This document shows positions 3,032-53,263 of a stretch of DNA of 64,000 bases, piece after piece. The notes beneath the pieces were generated by a model. That model worked only from the letters and a program-made list of their open reading frames with translations, did no database searches and had not been told where the DNA came from. A program made the position numbers and the translations under genes. Each line of letters starts with the position of its first letter. Within the stretch, counting starts at the first letter, position 1. Source of the DNA: an uncultured Pseudomonadota bacterium. Lineage in GTDB: Bacteria > Pseudomonadota > Alphaproteobacteria > Rs-D84. Where the stretch lies: assembly GCA_902788485.1 (NCBI GenBank), contig CADAKI010000001.1, positions 114,226-178,225 on the forward strand, given 5' to 3'.

Positions 3032-3721
3032 ATGCGTGATATGAGGCGCTCTATTTATTTTTGGATATGTTTTTGCATTGCCATAATAATGGCGATATAT
3101 TTTGCATCACGAATAATAATGGTTGCGATGGGACATGGCGCCGCGTCTAAATTACACAAAACCCAAATTGTATCTGATGCCGAAAACAAAGATATGACGG
3201 CATTATCTGCCGCCGTTGCATTACCAAAAAACACACATATTTACAGTGTATCTTTGAACGACATCAATGAAAATTTGTTATCTGTGCCTGGTGTAAAAAA
3301 TGCCGCCACCCGCCGATTACCAAATGGGAATTTAATCATACATGTATCACACCATCATTTTGTTGCCACATGGACCGATGGCGAAAACTATTTTCCATTA
3401 TCTGACGACGGAACAATCGCGAATAATCCATCCGAAACACGACCTGATACCGCACTGTTATTCCGCGGCCCGGTCCCGACCGACATCACCGAAATCACAA
3501 ATGCCGCAAATGATATGATTTCCGAAATCGACTATATTGAATGGATTGAAAATCGCCGTTGGGATATACACACAAATGGTGGCATCACAATAAAATTACC
3601 TGAATCCGGTTTTGCATCTGCAATCGCTGGTTTAATAACATTGAACAAAAACAACAACATTTTGGGACGCGACATTCGTGTTATTGATATGCGCGACCCT
3701 GCACGCATTTTGGTTAAATAA
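3032..3721 (+). CDS. ftsQ: Cell division protein FtsQ
   Basis: N-terminal TM, then a POTRA/FtsQ-type periplasmic domain; sits immediately upstream of the ftsA homolog (conserved dcw order). Confidence 0.75.
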   Translation: MRDMRRSIYFWICFCIAIIMAIYFASRIIMVAMGHGAASKLHKTQIVSDAENKDMTALSAAVALPKNTHIYSVSLNDINENLLSVPGVKNAATRRLPNGNLIIHVSHHHFVATWTDGENYFPLSDDGTIANNPSETRPDTALLFRGPVPTDITEITNAANDMISEIDYIEWIENRRWDIHTNGGITIKLPESGFASAIAGLITLNKNNNILGRDIRVIDMRDPARILVK

Positions 3722-3724
3722 AAA

Positions 3725-5497
3725 ATGAATTTATCGGACTCTTGCTTTTTATGCCTTGATATCGGAACATCTTGCACCCGTGGTGTCGCACATCGTATTC
3801 GAAATGGGAAAATTGCAAAATCCGCAACCGCAATGTGCGACAATTTTAACCAACAATTCGCAATAAAATCTGTGATTGATAACTTGGAACACGAAATCGG
3901 CACCCATTTCGAAGACGCATACATCACCGGCAATTTTGGTAAATCTGAATTTTTACGCCCGCGCCAAAGCACATTGTGGAACAACGAACATAAAATCACA
4001 GAATCCGACATCCGTGTCCAAATTTCTAAAATAGAATTTCCAGATGGCTTTTCACCAATTCATATAATCCCATTACAATATGACACACCATCTGCACGCA
4101 AAATTGCAACGCCGATTGGTTATACCGACCATCAATTATTATCAACATTTGGCGTGATATGTTATGAAAACACCCGATTGAACGAAATTGTATCATTATT
4201 ACACAAGGCGCACATCCAATACAACGGCATGTTTGACCCGGGATATTTATTGGCACAAAACTTGCGCAAACCGGGTGAAACAATATTGTTGATTGACCTG
4301 GGGGCTGAATTTTCATCTATATCAATATGGAACAATCGTGGTGTGTTGTGGCACAAAAAATTACCGATTGGCATGTCCAATATAACAATGGATTTATCAA
4401 AATCATTAAACATCGATTTTGACGAGGCCGAAAGAATAAAACGCCAAACCGCAAATTTAATTCCACGCGCAATGGACCGTATGACGCCGGCCGATACCGC
4501 ATACGATTTCACCCGTGGCGATGTGAACGATATTGTTGTCCCAGATATTGTTGATATAATCGGACAAATTAAATCCGCATCCATGGACGCCGTATCAAAA
4601 TTATTACCCACCCGTATAATTGTCAGTGGTGGCGGCACACAAATTGACGGCGTTGTTGATTTCATAGGAAACGCATTTGCCATACCCGCCGAAAATCATC
4701 ATGCCGACGCAACAATAACCGCACTGTCTGATTATATATGGAACTCTGCGGCAAACGCCCGCGCGGCATACGCACAAAAAATGGCGCGTCATGAAAAATA
4801 CATAAACAAAATAAAAAAATTATTTACCACGCACCCCAAAAAGAAAAAGCCAAAATTTATACCAATCGCACCATCAACATTATGTTTTAATATGTATTCA
4901 CCTGCGACATATAAATTATTTGATGACGCGGGCATATCGACAATTCATGTTGATATAATGGACGGTTTTTATGTATCACGCGTGGCGGGTGGCATACATG
5001 AATTAAAAACAATTCGCGCAAACACACGCGCGCACCTGCATGTTCATTTAATGACCGAAAACCCGGCTGTATGGGCGGCCAACGCAATCCAGGCGGGCGC
5101 CGACACAATTATATTATCATTAAACACATCTGGGGTTCGGGCGGCTCTGCGCGGCATACGCGCAACCGGGCGCCGTGCCGGCGTTGCGATAAATCCCGAT
5201 ATTCCATTATCAACATTGGTGCCATTACTGCGCGATATTGACGAGGTTATGGTAATGGCGGTCCAACCGGGCGCCGCGGGTCAAGAATTCGACACATCTG
5301 TTCTGCAAAAAATTTTGGCCCTGGCCACAACACGCAAAAAACACGGATTAAAATATATTATATCTGTGGACGGCGGCATAAATGAAACAACCGCACAAAA
5401 ATGTTGGGACGCCGGCGCCGATTTATTGGTCAGTGGTTCTTATTTACAACATGCCCACGATTTTGCATTGGCTGTTCAAAGTTTATTAAAAAAATAA
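3725..5497 (+). CDS. ftsA: FtsA-like actin-family division protein (about 375 aa) fused in frame through a KKKKPK linker to a complete ribulose-phosphate 3-epimerase (Rpe) domain
   Basis: N-terminal part aligns with FtsA blocks (LCLDIGTS.., IIPLQYD, LLIDLGAEFSSISIW, IIVSGGGTQIDG). C-terminal 215 aa aligns with Rpe (IAPSTL..HVDIMDGFYV..HLMT..AVQPGAAGQEF..SVDGGI). No stop codon or obvious start separates them. Confidence 0.7.
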   Translation: MNLSDSCFLCLDIGTSCTRGVAHRIRNGKIAKSATAMCDNFNQQFAIKSVIDNLEHEIGTHFEDAYITGNFGKSEFLRPRQSTLWNNEHKITESDIRVQISKIEFPDGFSPIHIIPLQYDTPSARKIATPIGYTDHQLLSTFGVICYENTRLNEIVSLLHKAHIQYNGMFDPGYLLAQNLRKPGETILLIDLGAEFSSISIWNNRGVLWHKKLPIGMSNITMDLSKSLNIDFDEAERIKRQTANLIPRAMDRMTPADTAYDFTRGDVNDIVVPDIVDIIGQIKSASMDAVSKLLPTRIIVSGGGTQIDGVVDFIGNAFAIPAENHHADATITALSDYIWNSAANARAAYAQKMARHEKYINKIKKLFTTHPKKKKPKFIPIAPSTLCFNMYSPATYKLFDDAGISTIHVDIMDGFYVSRVAGGIHELKTIRANTRAHLHVHLMTENPAVWAANAIQAGADTIILSLNTSGVRAALRGIRATGRRAGVAINPDIPLSTLVPLLRDIDEVMVMAVQPGAAGQEFDTSVLQKILALATTRKKHGLKYIISVDGGINETTAQKCWDAGADLLVSGSYLQHAHDFALAVQSLLKK

Positions 5498-48788: not shown

Positions 48789-51107
48789 ATGAAATGGACA
48801 TATGAATGGTTGCGCGAATATCTGGATACAGATTATACAGCCGAACAAATAGAGGAAACTTTAAATCGTATTGGTTTAGAGGTTGAAGAATTTTTCCCTG
48901 CGGTACCACCGATTGCGGCAAAAATTGTTGAATGTCGCCCACATGAAAACAGCGATCACTTGCATGTATTAATGGTTGACGATGGGTCCGGCAAATTGCG
49001 CCAGGTTGTATGTGGCGCGCCAAACGCACGCGCAGGGTTAATATCTGCGCTGGCGCGGCCAGGATGTGTTGTTGGCGGTGTTGAAATTCAACCTGGAAAA
49101 CTGCGTGGGGTTGTATCAAACGGCATGATGTGCAGTGAACACGAATTGGGAATTGGTGATGATGATGATGGCATTATGGAATTGCCAGATGATACAAAAA
49201 TTGGCGATGCAATCGCAGGCACCAATGTCAGCAGTGTTTTTGACACCGGAATCACGCCAAATCGCCCTGATTATTTGGCGGTGCGTGGGATTGCACTGGA
49301 TTTGGCGGCATGTTCCGTTGGGCGTTATATCGCAAAAACACCGATTACATTGGCGGAAAAACCGGGCGCACGCAGTGTGCAATTAATGTCTGACCGTTGT
49401 CCAACATATCGTATGGCGGAAATTCATGGTATAAAAAATGCGCCGTCAAACGCGAAAATTGCAAATCGGCTGTCTGCGGCGGGTATTAATCCGAAAAACG
49501 CGTGTGTGGATGCAACAAATTATATCTGTTATGATATGTCGCAACCCCTGCATTGTTTTGATGCAGACAAAGTCGATGGTCCAATCATCGTCCGCACGGC
49601 ACAAAATGGCGAGAAATTTACCGACCTGTTTGGTGCCACACACGAATTGACCGACAAAGATTTGGTTATCGCCGATATGTCGGGTGTTTTGGCACTGGCG
49701 GGAATTATTGGTGGTGCGCGTGCAATGACCACGGATGACACAAAAAATATTATTTTAGAATCTGCGTATTTTGAACCGGTGGGTATTCGTAAAACCGCAA
49801 AACGGTTGGGATTGTCAACCGATGCATCGTATCGATATGAACGCGGTATTGACCCAAATGTATCGGGACCCGCACTGGCGGCGGCGGCGCAAATTATAAT
49901 GGATGCATGTGGTGGTGAAATTGTGTCGGTTGTGAACGCCGGACGCACAGAATTTACACCGAACAAAATTGCATATAATCCGGCATTTTGCCTGCAACGG
50001 ACGGGTGTTGATATGCCGATTGATGCCCAACGCGAAATCCTAGAATCTTTACAGTTCGGTGTTGCCACCGGCAAAGGCGGCATTTGGACCATAACCCCAC
50101 GCAGTGCACGTGTTGATATGACGGCGCCTGAAAACATTGTGTCTGATTTAATCAGAATTTATGGTTATGATAAGGTGGGATTGTCAGGGATTGTTGAAAC
50201 AAAAAATGAAAACACCGATAAAATAGAATCGCGCGGATGCGTTGGATTAAAACGCCGTCTGGCAAATATGGGATTAAACGAAAACATATCGTTTGGTTTT
50301 GGTAATTCTAAAATAGACGGTATGTTGACCGACAAACCGATTATTCCGGTATCAAACCCAATCACGGTTGAATTTGATTGCATGCGGAATAATTTACTGG
50401 GGAATTTGTTGATTGCATTGACGGGCAACATCAAACGCGGATATCCAAATGTCGCAATGTTTGAATTGGGAACGGTATTCGATGGTGATATGCCGGGCGA
50501 CGAACATACGCAAATATGTATTGTGCGTTCGGGCGCAACATCGCCAAAACATTGGATGAAGCGCAATCGATACGTTGATGTGTTTGATGTAAAATCTGAT
50601 GTTTTGTCATTGATTGGAAATCAAAAATATACAATCGAAACAACCGACGCACCGAAATGGGCGCACCCATATAAATATGGCCGGATTACCCAAGGCCCCA
50701 AAAAGATTGCGGAATTTGGCGAATTGCATCCCAATATTGCGCATGCGTTGCACATCAAATCACCAACGGTTGTCGTGATTATTGATGATATAAAAAATCT
50801 GCCGGATGCGCCAAAACATGCAAAAACACCGATAACAGAATTTCAACCAATCACGCGTGATTTTGCGTTTGTGACGGAATCCAAATTCCCAGCGGAAAAA
50901 TTAGTAATGGCGGCGCGCGGTGTGGATAACCGTATTGGCGATGTGACAATATTTGATTCGTTCGATATGGGCGATGGAACAAAATCTGTGGCATTTACAA
51001 TCACGATTTATCCAACATCAAATATGGGCGATGCCGAATTGACCGAATTACAGAACAAGGTAATTACCGCGGTGACAACAAAATGCCACGCAACCCTACG
51101 CGCTTAA
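48789..51107 (+). CDS. pheT: Phenylalanyl-tRNA synthetase beta subunit
   Basis: 772 aa; N-terminal tRNA-binding OB fold, B3/4, B5 and FDX-ACB domains. Confidence 0.9.
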   Translation: MKWTYEWLREYLDTDYTAEQIEETLNRIGLEVEEFFPAVPPIAAKIVECRPHENSDHLHVLMVDDGSGKLRQVVCGAPNARAGLISALARPGCVVGGVEIQPGKLRGVVSNGMMCSEHELGIGDDDDGIMELPDDTKIGDAIAGTNVSSVFDTGITPNRPDYLAVRGIALDLAACSVGRYIAKTPITLAEKPGARSVQLMSDRCPTYRMAEIHGIKNAPSNAKIANRLSAAGINPKNACVDATNYICYDMSQPLHCFDADKVDGPIIVRTAQNGEKFTDLFGATHELTDKDLVIADMSGVLALAGIIGGARAMTTDDTKNIILESAYFEPVGIRKTAKRLGLSTDASYRYERGIDPNVSGPALAAAAQIIMDACGGEIVSVVNAGRTEFTPNKIAYNPAFCLQRTGVDMPIDAQREILESLQFGVATGKGGIWTITPRSARVDMTAPENIVSDLIRIYGYDKVGLSGIVETKNENTDKIESRGCVGLKRRLANMGLNENISFGFGNSKIDGMLTDKPIIPVSNPITVEFDCMRNNLLGNLLIALTGNIKRGYPNVAMFELGTVFDGDMPGDEHTQICIVRSGATSPKHWMKRNRYVDVFDVKSDVLSLIGNQKYTIETTDAPKWAHPYKYGRITQGPKKIAEFGELHPNIAHALHIKSPTVVVIIDDIKNLPDAPKHAKTPITEFQPITRDFAFVTESKFPAEKLVMAARGVDNRIGDVTIFDSFDMGDGTKSVAFTITIYPTSNMGDAELTELQNKVITAVTTKCHATLRA

Positions 51108-51109
51108 TT

Positions 51110-51197
51110 CCAAAGTTCAAAGTGCAGAGTTCAAATTGCAATAAATGAATTATTATTATTCATTATCTGAACTTTGCACTTTGAAAATTGCACTTTG
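51110..51197. repeat. Full-length palindromic element PE-3 (intergenic)
   Basis: Left arm ccaaagttcaaagtgcagagttcaaattgca, AT-rich palindromic centre aatgaattattattattcatt, right arm tctgaactttgcactttgaaaattgcactttg. Confidence 0.65.
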
Positions 51198-51199
51198 TT

Positions 51200-51460
51200 T
51201 TACAATGCCCGTTTCAAAAATTCGATAATTTCATTGTCTGATAATTTTAATACACGCAACCAACGAATAGTTTCCATAATATCCAGCCGTCGTTCGTATG
51301 TTTCAACGCGCCCAACACAACAATGTGTCACGCGCATTTTTTGTGCCAATTCGCGTTGGGTTAAACCGCGTTGTTTCCGTAATTCAACCATGCGGTCAAT
51401 CATATCGCGGTATTTGTCCTGAAAAATGGTCTTTTTATTAAAAATAAATTTTTTATTCAT
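51200..51460 (-). CDS. XRE-family (Cro/C1-type HTH) transcriptional regulator
   Basis: 86 aa; HTH LTQRELAQKMRVTHCCVGRVE. Confidence 0.7.
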   Translation of the reverse strand: MNKKFIFNKKTIFQDKYRDMIDRMVELRKQRGLTQRELAQKMRVTHCCVGRVETYERRLDIMETIRWLRVLKLSDNEIIEFLKRAL

Positions 51461-51486
51461 GATATCATTTTGATATCATATAACCC

Positions 51487-51515
51487 CTGAACTCAAATTG
51501 AGAACAAGGTATAAT
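51487..51515 (+). promoter_or_regulatory. Promoter module copy 1 (CTGAAC-17-TATAAT) with 11-bp palindrome ctcaaattgag in the spacer
   Basis: Near-identical to the module at 51780-51808; the palindrome is a candidate operator for the adjacent XRE regulator. Confidence 0.45.
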
Positions 51516-51558
51516 ACCTAGGTGTCAGGAAATAAAGGGGTTTGTATGAAAATATATT

Positions 51559-51621
51559 TTTACATGAAATAAAAGATGGTTGCATGGAATAAAAAGAGAT
51601 TACATGAAATGTAAAACAAGG
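51559..51621. repeat. Three tandem 21-bp iteron-like repeats (TTRCATGRAATRWAAARNNNN)
   Basis: ttacatgaaataaaagatggt / tgcatggaataaaaagagat / tacatgaaatgtaaaacaagg; further degenerate copies up to about 51700. Confidence 0.5.
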
Positions 51622-51779
51622 TTATATAAAAAATTTTTATTGTATTTATGTTAAATAAAATGATGTTACATAAAAACTCAATATGAGTTGCATTTTGTTA
51701 AATAAAATATTTTTTCTGATTTTCTTATTCGCTTATTAACTTGTTCGCTTGCAACAGCATTTATGATATCAAAAATACC

Positions 51780-51808
51780 TTGAACTCAAATTGAGAACAC
51801 GGTATAAT
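51780..51808 (+). promoter_or_regulatory. Consensus sigma70 promoter TTGAAC-17-TATAAT (module copy 2) driving the OMP gene
   Basis: Perfect spacing, same ctcaaattgag palindrome in the spacer; 26 nt upstream of ATG 51834. Confidence 0.6.
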
Positions 51809-51833
51809 GTCTATAGACAAAAAAGTGGAAAAT

Positions 51834-52616
51834 ATGAAAAAATTACCTTTGTTTATTTTTTGTATAATGTATATAACCCCAATAATGGCGGACGGCAAGT
51901 AGTATCCAATAAACAATCAAACTGTTAATAATGTGTATAAAAAACAAGATAAAGCAAAATACGATAACGATTCATTAAATACCAGAAAACAAAAATATAA
52001 AGATTTATCTAGTCGTCGATACGACACCAAAAAATATGAAACCAAACAACATCATAACAATGATGATATGAATATTTATATTGGCGCAAATATAAATTAC
52101 AATGTTATGTCTTATAATTCAGAAATGAGTTTACCGTATACAAAATTTCCTGAATCTTACTGGGGTGCTGGTGCGGAGTTAGGAATAAAATTTGGTGAAA
52201 AAAATAATAAATGGAACTGCGGTTTGCTTATAGCGTATGATTATTTATATGATAAAGAAATATACACGCTTGATTATCCAATTGCAAAAATTGGTTTTTC
52301 AAGTATAGGCATTGGTTTTGATAATTATATAGAAATATCAAATCAAGATAACAAAAGAACAGATTTTGTTTTAGGTGTTGGTATTGCGAAAGCAACAGAA
52401 AGGGCGTCTATAGATATTCCTGGATTTTATGATTTTTCTGGATATCACGAAAGTGAGTCTTTAAAAGATAATGTTTTTTTATTAAAACTTGGTGTAAACA
52501 CACAAATGACAGAAAATATGGATTGGTATATGAGTGCCAGATTTTTTATCCCTAAAAAAGACACAGGTATAGATTTTGTATCATCTGTTCAAACCGGAAT
52601 AAAGTTTAATTTTTAA
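51834..52616 (+). pseudogene. Outer-membrane beta-barrel (OmpA/Omp25/OmpW-like) gene interrupted by an in-frame TAG at 51900-51902, right after the signal peptide
   Basis: MKKLPLFIFCIMYITPIMADGK-TAG-YPINNQTVNNV-YKKQDK... is a single frame. C-terminus ..GIKFNF has the terminal aromatic of beta-barrel OMPs. Downstream ORF 51933..52616 has no signal peptide on its own. Confidence 0.55.
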
Positions 52617-53263
52617 CACTTTTTATCCGCTGCATTGCAAATATCAAACAATGGGCATGTTTCACATTTTGGGCGCAGTGCCGTGCAAGTATATCGCCCA
52701 AACAACACCATCACATGATTTGTAATTGCATGATATTTTGATGGGATTTTTTTGCGTAATTTTTCTTCGACTTTTTCCGGTGTATTGTCCGCCGCCCCAA
52801 CCCAACCATACCGATGAGCCAATCGAAACACATGCGTATCCACACCGATATTTGGTGCGCCCCATAAAACATTTGTTATAACATTTGCGGTTTTTTGACC
52901 AATGCCCGGTAATTTCATCAATTCATCACGTGTGTGATATTTATTTGGAAATTTCCAATCGGTGCCCTGCCCATCCGCCAAAATTTCCGCCAATTTGATG
53001 ATACTGTTTGCCTTGTTATTAAAAAAAGAAATAACCCGTATATGTTGCTTTAACCCATCAATCCCCAATTCCAACATTTTATTTGGTGTTGGCGCAATAC
53101 GGAATAATTCCGGTGTCACCTCGTTCACTTTTTTATCTGTTGCCTGGGCCGACAAAATCACCGCCACCGCAAAAGTGAAATCATTCACCGAATACAATTC
53201 CGACCGAATATTCATATTCAGATTTTGTGGAACGATTTCAAAAAACTTTTGCGGTGTTATCAT
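52613..53263 (-). CDS. nth: Endonuclease III
   Basis: HhH-GPD motif plus C-terminal 4Fe-4S cluster CTALRPKCETCPLFDIC. Confidence 0.9.
   Translation of the reverse strand: MITPQKFFEIVPQNLNMNIRSELYSVNDFTFAVAVILSAQATDKKVNEVTPELFRIAPTPNKMLELGIDGLKQHIRVISFFNNKANSIIKLAEILADGQGTDWKFPNKYHTRDELMKLPGIGQKTANVITNVLWGAPNIGVDTHVFRLAHRYGWVGAADNTPEKVEEKLRKKIPSKYHAITNHVMVLFGRYTCTALRPKCETCPLFDICNAADKKC

Follow-up and report, generated by a model that had tools for sequence, protein, structure and literature searches.

The outer-membrane protein gene and its amber codon

The window analysed here is a 64-kb (64,000-nucleotide) stretch of contig CADAKI010000001.1 from an uncultured alphaproteobacterium. At 51200-52616 it carries a gene for a predicted outer-membrane protein (OMP), the reading frame of which is broken by an amber codon shortly after the signal peptide, together with two copies of a promoter module and a divergently transcribed XRE-family helix-turn-helix (HTH) regulator gene. 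The OMP gene occupies 51834-52616 on the + strand as a single frame from ATG 51834 to TAA 52616. Its sole internal stop is TAG 51900-51902, three codons past the predicted signal-peptide cleavage site. Translation of 51834-52616 yields MKKLPLFIFCIMYITPIMADGK, the TAG, YPINNQ...GIKFNF and the TAA, which bears out the claim of an earlier note on this DNA that one frame is broken only by the TAG after the signal peptide. The gene comprises the following parts.

51834-51899, + strand: translated remnant, consisting of the predicted signal peptide MKKLPLFIFCIMYITPIMA (51834-51890) followed by DGK
51900-51902, + strand: premature amber codon, a conserved Trp codon TGG changed to TAG by G-to-A at 51901
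51903-52616, + strand: untranslatable remainder of the OMP, with a ~55-residue Lys/Asn/Tyr-rich linker, then an 8-stranded barrel at ~52068-52613, ending in ...GIKFNF and TAA
52029-52034, + strand: A6 tract, intact in the window, and site of an independent A6-to-A5 frameshift in two related loci (L017 and L018; L and P numbers are our handles for related loci and proteins)

The open reading frame (ORF) called mechanically in this region starts at GTG 51933 and encodes 227 aa. It lies in the OMP frame, has a hydrophilic start and is devoid of a signal peptide, in agreement with the earlier note, which had described it as lacking an export signal. With the TAG at codon 23 and the rest starting at GTG 51933 without a signal peptide, the OMP gene of the window has no intact frame for an exported protein.

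The OMP falls below every Pfam and NCBIfam cut-off (12 bits against 28.7 for OMP_b-brl and 13.2 against 27 for OMP_b-brl_2), and its fold was therefore established by structure prediction. The AlphaFold2 model, generated from a six-sequence alignment, displays eight long β-strands with an overall pLDDT (predicted local distance difference test) of 72 and values of 80-93 over most barrel blocks, and the first ~55 residues are disordered. The top PDB matches of this model in Foldseek are the OmpA transmembrane domain (OmpA-TM; 9fzc/1bxw), Ail (3qra), OmpX (1qj9), NspA (1p4t) and OmpW, with E values of 4e-9 to 9e-7, a probability of 1.00 to OmpA-TM, Ail, OmpX and NspA, and sequence identities to the solved structures of 13-17%. 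The protein thus combines a predicted Sec signal peptide (MKKLPLFIFCIMYITPIMA), eight predicted strands and a C-terminal aromatic residue, the β-signal for the β-barrel assembly machinery (BAM). The model predicts an OmpX/OmpA-like barrel of eight strands, and the family to which the protein belongs is small and uncharacterised.

A HMMER profile search of 1.84 billion representative proteins (50% clustering) retrieved 57 relatives of the OMP. An MKK...A-type signal peptide at the start and an invariant C-terminal F are found in 32/32 aligned family members, and Pfam OMP_b-brl matches at E <= 0.01 in 10/32. No relatives were found in a JGI metagenome scan, and a scan of GTDB species representatives, which did not return the window's own genome, gave one distant relative (rumen metagenome-assembled genome, MAG, RUG13870). 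The family is confined to one clade of uncultured Alphaproteobacteria associated with the gut, and the window gene is its long-form allele.

The residue replaced by the stop is a conserved tryptophan. A protein search returned five OMP relatives, three of which have the long N-terminus, all with Trp at the TAG site: MADGKWYPINN (P0001, 99%), MANGKWYPTNN (P0002, 79%) and NADKKWYSQNN (P0003, 54%). The W is also present in P0081, and Trp conservation across these four proteins spans 54-99% protein identity. At the nucleotide level, the comparison with orthologs that the earlier note had proposed for position 51900 gives TGG at 51900-51902 in L001, L017, L018, L019, L002 and L003. Compared base by base with L001, the 99% allele, the window shows 22 differences over 1304 positions; position 51901, A in the window and G in L001, is one among several ordinary substitutions. 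Because TGG is present in every orthologue found, 99%-identical alleles included, with G as the ancestral base at 51901, the amber codon is best explained by a single G-to-A transition and not by recoding, and it therefore raises no new question on the genetic code.

Taken together, the amber codon is very probably an ordinary recent nonsense mutation, giving a loss-of-function allele that is in effect a young pseudogene. Ribosomes would stop after 22 residues (the signal peptide plus Asp-Gly-Lys) and the barrel would not be made, and any product reinitiated downstream of the TAG would be kept from the outer membrane by its lack of an export signal. In annotation terms, the ORF of 227 aa from GTG 51933 would then be a fragment of a 260-aa OMP pseudogene. 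Pro5 of the signal peptide was considered as a second lesion and rejected, since the intact allele P0081 has Pro5 too. No OMP paralogue is present in the 64-kb window, where the locus is single-copy.

The earlier note had also listed programmed readthrough. If a suppressor tRNA, or near-cognate insertion of Trp, Gln or Tyr, allowed the amber codon to be read through, the allele would be leaky and down-regulated, with low full-length OMP, and not null. Natural UAG readthrough at a low level is known in bacteria, and the downstream frame is fully intact with no second lesion; as the mutation is young, an intact downstream frame is expected with or without readthrough. The stop, on the other hand, is conserved in no relative, and TAG terminates two other window genes at normal operon junctions, where it is followed each time by the ribosome-binding site and ATG of the next gene. 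The base after the TAG is U, which according to E. coli data favours termination. A tRNA scan of the 64-kb window found no suppressor tRNA (its four tRNAs are Met x2 and Thr x2), and a search of 50900-52700 against Rfam gave no recoding element, the only hits being spurious sub-threshold generic miRNA hairpins on the pheT/XRE terminator. Readthrough is thus unsupported, and we regard it as very improbable.

Separate assemblies and a second disrupted allele

The exact 227-aa ORF, a call that occurs only when the TAG blocks the upstream frame, is found on 4-5 contigs, up to 382 kb long, in NCBI, Logan and ENA. One of the matching assemblies is a 91-kb MEGAHIT contig (ENA ERZ27280412), which is 100% identical to the window over the 5.2 kb compared, TAG included. 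By its coordinates this contig cannot contain the 64-kb window, so at least two separate assemblies carry the TAG, which makes an assembler artefact unlikely. The main rival to a young pseudogene is a sequencing or consensus error, in which case the organism has TGG and an intact OMP gene. Such an error would involve a single-base change, the nearest allele (L001, 99%) has TGG, and the source is a metagenome-assembled genome, a consensus that may take up minority variants. It would have to be reconciled with the recurrence of the identical TAG allele, both in the separate MEGAHIT contig of 91 kb and in contigs of differing length from NCBI, Logan and ENA, with the location of 51901 outside any homopolymer, and with the 22/1304 differences between the window and L001, which reflect real strain divergence. 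The sequencing error put forward in the earlier note has thus lost ground, and we consider it improbable.

A second disruption of the same gene was found in L017 (ERR12352550) and L018 (ERR12353622). Both carry the window's OMP allele (99.4% identical) and keep the TGG, but have A5 for A6 at 52029-52034. In the A5 allele the frame shifts past ...RRYDTK and ends at a TGA, splitting the ORF into 61 aa and 182 or 169 aa. Since this break is independent of the TAG, the OMP gene appears to have been knocked out at least two times. Four distinct lineages carry the window's OMP allele, which is broken in two of them (the window; L017/L018) and unbroken in the other two (L001; L019).

The ratio of nonsynonymous to synonymous divergence (dN/dS) of the OMP gene is 0.33 relative to L002 and 0.40 relative to L003, compared to 0.08-0.12 for pheT, the XRE gene and nth. 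These sequence comparisons indicate that the OMP is under purifying selection over longer distances, though relaxed, and hence that it is normally a working gene in which the stop is recent. The recently inactivated surface protein that the earlier note had envisaged is supported by the TGG in all orthologues, by these long-range ratios and by the second knock-out. The knock-outs, together with the allele swaps described below, would be consistent with a surface-exposed product that is repeatedly lost or exchanged under phage or host pressure.

Two independent off-alleles in a gene that is otherwise 99-100% identical, one of them in a homopolymer and both at a variable surface-protein locus, could also suggest phase variation, that is, a reversible on/off surface protein for which the TAG and the A-tract frameshift are the 'off' states of a contingency locus. 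TGG-to-TAG, however, is a point substitution without a nearby repeat and thus offers no high-rate reversal mechanism. No simple-sequence repeat lies at the TAG; only the separate frameshift allele falls in one, the A6 tract, which is short for slipped-strand switching. The 20-bp repeats of the locus lie between the promoter modules, not between -35 and -10 hexamers nor in the coding sequence. We therefore give phase variation very little credence compared with loss of function by ordinary mutation.

Several points weigh against an inactivated gene with a history of repeated loss. The 4-5 contigs with the TAG may all stem from one sample or one animal, and there is a small probability of a base-calling error or of a minority variant turned consensus. 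What separates A5 from A6 is the length of a homopolymer in Logan assemblies, and L017 and L018, which come from one study, may be one strain. Finally, the 99% alleles differ at 1-2 synonymous positions, so that relaxed selection and positive selection for loss are indistinguishable, and the gene may be decaying neutrally.

Promoter modules, spacer and XRE regulator

The region upstream of the OMP gene, the cargo of this locus, contains four features.

51200-51460, - strand: 86-aa XRE-family HTH regulator, divergent from the cargo gene; Pfam HTH_31 and HTH_3
51458-51520, + strand: promoter/operator module 1, with two TGATATCA palindromes (51460-51478), CTGAAC (51487-51492), a 17-nt spacer and TATAAT (51510-51515)
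51521-51758, no strand assigned: AT-rich spacer, with a remnant ribosome-binding site and ATGAAA (51531-51555) and 20-bp tandem repeats (51560-51616)
51759-51833, + strand: promoter/operator module 2, directly 5' of the OMP gene, with TTGAAC (51780-51785), a 17-nt spacer, TATAAT (51803-51808) and the 5' untranslated region

In module 1, the pair of TGATATCA palindromes abuts the XRE start (CAT 51458-51460). The 17-nt spacer holds the palindrome CTCAAATTGAG in both modules, at 51492-51502 in module 1 and at 51785-51795 in module 2. The earlier note had reported a near-identical second module 293 bp upstream. Both the duplication and the distance hold (51468-51520 and 51761-51813, 53 nt, 83% identical, 293 nt apart), but the duplication is longer, extending to ~100 nt with a degenerate ribosome-binding site and ATGAAA (51531-51555 and 51819-43). 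The two copies share the exact 16-mer AACTCAAATTGAGAAC, which has no other occurrence in the 64-kb window. The promoter that the note had called perfect is indeed TTGAAC-17-TATAAT with a palindrome in its spacer, but it matches the consensus at 10/12 positions only, TTGAAC in module 2 agreeing with TTGACA at 4/6; the upstream copy reads CTGAAC.

Promoter-like sites are not enriched in the region (12, compared to 11.3 in shuffled sequence), and the promoter is judged real because it is conserved across loci, not because of its consensus match. Module 2 is conserved before all three cargo types (long OMP, lipoprotein and short OMP), and module 1 has its orthologue in the single module that L002, L020 and L023-L028 each have. 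In L002 this single module lies in an 82-nt intergenic region, and the AT-rich spacer and repeat array are absent. Module 1, which aligns end-to-end with the single module of L002, a decayed ribosome-binding site and ATGAAA included, would thus represent the native XRE/cargo intergenic region, and module 2 with the AT-rich spacer looks like the scar of a past cassette exchange.

The very AT-rich stretch described in the earlier note is confirmed by a G+C content of 0.24-0.31 across 51450-52650, compared to 0.40-0.50 in most flanking windows. Tandem repeats start at 51560, 51580 and 51600 (3 pattern matches, with 0.16 expected by chance), and Tandem Repeats Finder (TRF) reports a period of 20 with 2.5-2.8 copies; the three copies of the note therefore stand, with a period of 20 nt and not 21. 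The number of copies is not the same in every strain, one unit being missing from the window, 42 nt from L006 and 62 nt from L019. As a consequence of this variation in 20-bp units, the module-to-module spacing takes values of 256, 282, 292, 293, 321, 325 and 326 nt across loci. DNA looping between the two modules was considered and rejected, given this variable spacing and the lack of helical phasing.

Three direct copies at a 20-nt period lie within the range expected of an iteron origin (at least three direct repeats of 17-22 bp). However, there is no rep-like ORF among the neighbours, which are housekeeping genes, and the array is variable in copy number and absent from L002. The 20-bp units behave as a variable-number repeat, not as iterons. 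The foreign cassette of regulatory or replication-like nature considered in the earlier note thus survives as a horizontally exchanged regulatory cassette, and its replication aspect is lost, with no rep gene and with repeats that vary. Within 51545-51710, several of the ~20-bp units hold a mini-ORF ATG-AAA-TAA (Met-Lys-stop) or close variants, and unit 3 forms the inverted repeat TTACAT-GAA-ATGTAA. These units may derive from repeated copying of the ribosome-binding-site/ATGAAA start region and have no evident function.

The 86-aa product of the divergent gene passes the Pfam cut-offs for HTH_31 (27.6 bits, cut-off 27) and HTH_3 (25.3 bits, cut-off 23), confirming the XRE-family assignment of the earlier note. 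Protein searches with it return many near-identical copies from uncultured 'Alphaproteobacteria bacterium' MAGs, and the gene is 96-98% identical at the nucleotide level in 14 loci, irrespective of flank divergence. An XRE dimer would bind the CTCAAATTGAG palindrome in the 17-nt spacer of the cargo promoter and repress the cargo, and it would also bind the paired TGATATCA palindromes abutting its own ATG and regulate its own gene. This layout, with a palindrome at the ATG, would be compatible with a leaderless autoregulated mRNA, as in many controller (C) proteins of restriction-modification (R-M) systems; leaderless mRNA is common among C genes (PMC2632904).

The pheT-nth slot and its likeness to known systems

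The regulator, the modules and the OMP gene lie between two housekeeping genes, with a hairpin on the left side.

48789-51107, + strand: pheT (phenylalanyl-tRNA synthetase beta subunit), left flank of the slot, a 772-aa ORF; the L002 orthologue has Pfam tRNA_bind, B3_4, B5 and FDX-ACB
51111-51197, no strand assigned: long imperfect hairpin between the convergent pheT and XRE stops, an inverted repeat with 43-nt arms
52613-53263, - strand: nth (endonuclease III), right flank of the slot; HhH-GPD (E = 1.5e-22) and EndIII Fe-S domain

Compared with L017, L018 and L019, the window is 96-99% identical in the XRE gene and 98-100% identical in module 2 and the OMP gene, whereas identity in pheT, nth and ileS is 80-92%. 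Relative to close loci, pheT is 86-96% identical and the island 96-100%. Synonymous divergence (dS) between the window and L019 is 0.007 for the OMP, 0.17 for the XRE gene and 0.67 for the adjacent nth. On account of these contrasts in dS (OMP versus nth) and identity, a block of ~1.4 kb (~51180-52620) seems to have been shared far more recently than its flanks. The comparison, in which the flanking pheT, nth and ileS diverge by 10-20%, points to a recent horizontal exchange of the XRE-to-OMP block, and the whole XRE-to-cargo block may have been exchanged between related species by recombination. Neither an integrase nor a repeat boundary was found at the block. Searches of phage and plasmid DNA with the 1.5-kb block gave no match, and the operator module pattern is absent from IMG/VR, so that a phage or plasmid origin is unsupported.

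The hairpin at 51111-51197 (87 nt) has a folding energy of -30.4 kcal/mol (z = -5.2 relative to shuffles) and is built of 7- and 14-nt tandem units (CAAAGTT / AGTTCAAAGTGCAG) mirrored in both arms; only its right arm is recognisable in L002. Identity to L017/L018 is 60-72% at the hairpin and 96-99% immediately to its right. It is probably a bidirectional terminator, coinciding with the left edge of the exchanged block.

Other genes occupy the same position in related loci. A 121-aa lipoprotein gene (MKKILLLLPIITLAAC...) fills the slot in L006-L008, L010 and L015, the flanks of which are 94-98% identical to the window, and a 202-aa short-form OMP is found in L009 and L011-L013. Between the window and the loci with other cargo, homology is lost ~15 nt into the coding sequence and picks up again at the stop codon of nth. 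Transfer of module 2 along with each cargo gene was considered and rejected: module 2 and the initial ~15 nt of coding sequence are common to the lipoprotein and long-OMP alleles, which places their breakpoint inside the signal-peptide region, and a diverged module 2 is present only in the short-OMP allele. What lies between pheT and nth is a slot that recombines and varies in cargo, with a conserved regulator/operator cassette. In L003 and L004 (rumen MAG RUG13870), the OMP gene is at the pheT-nth position with no XRE gene. Since this position is kept in relatives as distant as 47-54% identity, the OMP is not foreign to the lineage.

Smaller differences are observed on both sides of the slot. 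At its right end, the OMP TAA (52614-52616) and the nth stop (TTA 52613-52615 on the + strand) overlap in TTAA 52613-52616, and because these convergent stop codons overlap there is no intergenic terminator between the two genes; in lipoprotein-cargo loci the cargo and nth are 46 nt apart. L019 (2102-2416), L009 (17-331) and L011 (484-798) have an ORF of 104 aa, without a Pfam match, between nth and ileS. In the window these two genes abut at 53263/53264 and the ORF is missing, a second small presence/absence difference beside the slot. Between pheT and the XRE gene, L002 has an extra gene (3593-3946) for a lipoprotein-like 117-aa product starting MKKQNLLWLLTVAMMMGGCGKK, and L014 has an extra 103-aa ORF (705-1016); these extra genes show that cargo also varies on the far side of the regulator. 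In L003, which has no XRE gene, the pheT-OMP intergenic region (440-694) has two GC stems with T runs that resemble terminators, plus ~150 nt of unexplained sequence.

The promoter module is also found beyond the closest relatives of the locus. A search by protein similarity alone brought up XRE homologues of 76% and 65% identity, and these carry the same module, in the order CATGATATCATTTTGATAYCA, 9 nt, TGAACTCAAATTGA, 7-8 nt and TATAAT. The TATAAT was outside the search pattern and yet stands at the fixed distance in 13/16 modules. The module faces, in L020, the genes of a type II methyltransferase and an endonuclease (PADLOC MTase_II 1e-111, REase_II 2e-129) and, in L023, a gene for a 213-aa protein that lacks a signal peptide. 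Five more module loci came from scanning metagenomes for the DNA pattern: two with the R-M pair, two with a Cys-rich secreted protein and one on a short contig.

The conserved type II R-M pair behind the module (L020 813-2928, L024 4307-6449 and L026 272-2387) consists of an EcoRI-methylase-like methyltransferase of 340-349 aa and, as endonuclease, a protein of 367-394 aa that has GmrSD_N (DUF262-type) and HNH domains. The L020 pair occupies the pheT-nth slot, with the regulator/cargo unit inverted relative to the window. The Cys-rich secreted proteins (L025 980-1750 and L027 778-1599), of 256 and 273 aa, have a TGYTFxGW-type repeat motif and are paired with 80-aa XRE homologues.

Owing to this recurrence of the XRE gene and module beside type II R-M and secreted-protein genes, the XRE gene with its promoter/palindrome module resembles the controller cassette of an R-M system. 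In a wider proposal, which we put forward tentatively and consider rather unlikely as a whole, the XRE gene and the module would be an 'expression dock' that is portable and common to a clade of gut Alphaproteobacteria. It would drive R-M genes in certain genomes and genes for surface or secreted proteins (OMPs, lipoproteins, Cys-rich secreted proteins) in others, and recombination without an integrase would carry it from species to species. The duplicated module and decayed spacer would be the scar of an exchange, and the OMP knock-outs would reflect selection, for example on a phage receptor.

The locus may be valuable as a clean natural case in which a surface-protein allele has a dS of 0.007 across genomes whose neighbouring genes have a dS of ~0.7, in which that allele appears to have been inactivated at least two times, and in which a regulator/operator cassette otherwise found with R-M systems seems to be reused for envelope proteins. 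It could help to study selection on envelope proteins in uncultured gut or rumen Alphaproteobacteria.

Among known proteins, the OMP is closest to the small 8-stranded barrels (OmpA-TM, OmpX, Ail, NspA and OmpW; Pfam OMP_b-brl PF13505 and relatives), with which it shares a predicted Sec signal peptide, a predicted antiparallel barrel of ~180 residues and a C-terminal Phe. Unlike OmpA/OmpX/Ail-type barrels, the long form in the window has a ~55-residue Lys/Asn/Tyr-rich linker that is absent from those proteins, and the gene is truncated at codon 23. As a locus it recalls Neisseria opa/por and Helicobacter hop, host-associated surface genes that are lost by nonsense or frameshift mutation or swapped by recombination. 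Natural inactivations and allele replacement between conserved flanks are common to these systems and the window, but repeat-mediated switching is not evident for the TAG, and the gene is single-copy in the window with no paralogue.

The regulator invites comparison with the C proteins (C.PvuII, C.AhdI and C.Esp1396I). In sequence, its similarity to characterised C proteins is weak (E = 0.024 for C.AhdI and 0.032 for C.Esp1396I), with E = 8.6e-4 for the PADLOC Control_protein model. In contrast to C systems, the window has no R-M genes next to the XRE gene, the neighbours being pheT, the OMP gene and nth, and the cargo is an OMP gene; the XRE gene is divergent from this cargo instead of preceding an endonuclease gene in the same transcript. 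Conserved palindromes adjoin the XRE start codon and lie in the divergent promoter, but TGATATCA and CTCAAATTGAG differ from the canonical C-box in sequence and spacing, and they do not keep the usual 17-18 nt from the ATG. In view of the missing R-M association and the weak similarity, the window XRE protein is not classed as a C protein. C homologues occurring with non-R-M genes have already been documented (PMC2632904). What the regulator has in common with C proteins is its small size (86 aa, within the ~70-100 aa typical of them), its XRE-type HTH fold family and the palindromic repeats directly 5' of its own start codon. R-M genes do adjoin its homologues in L020, L021, L024 and L026, and the 76%-identical homologue, with the same operator module, lies beside a type II methyltransferase and endonuclease.

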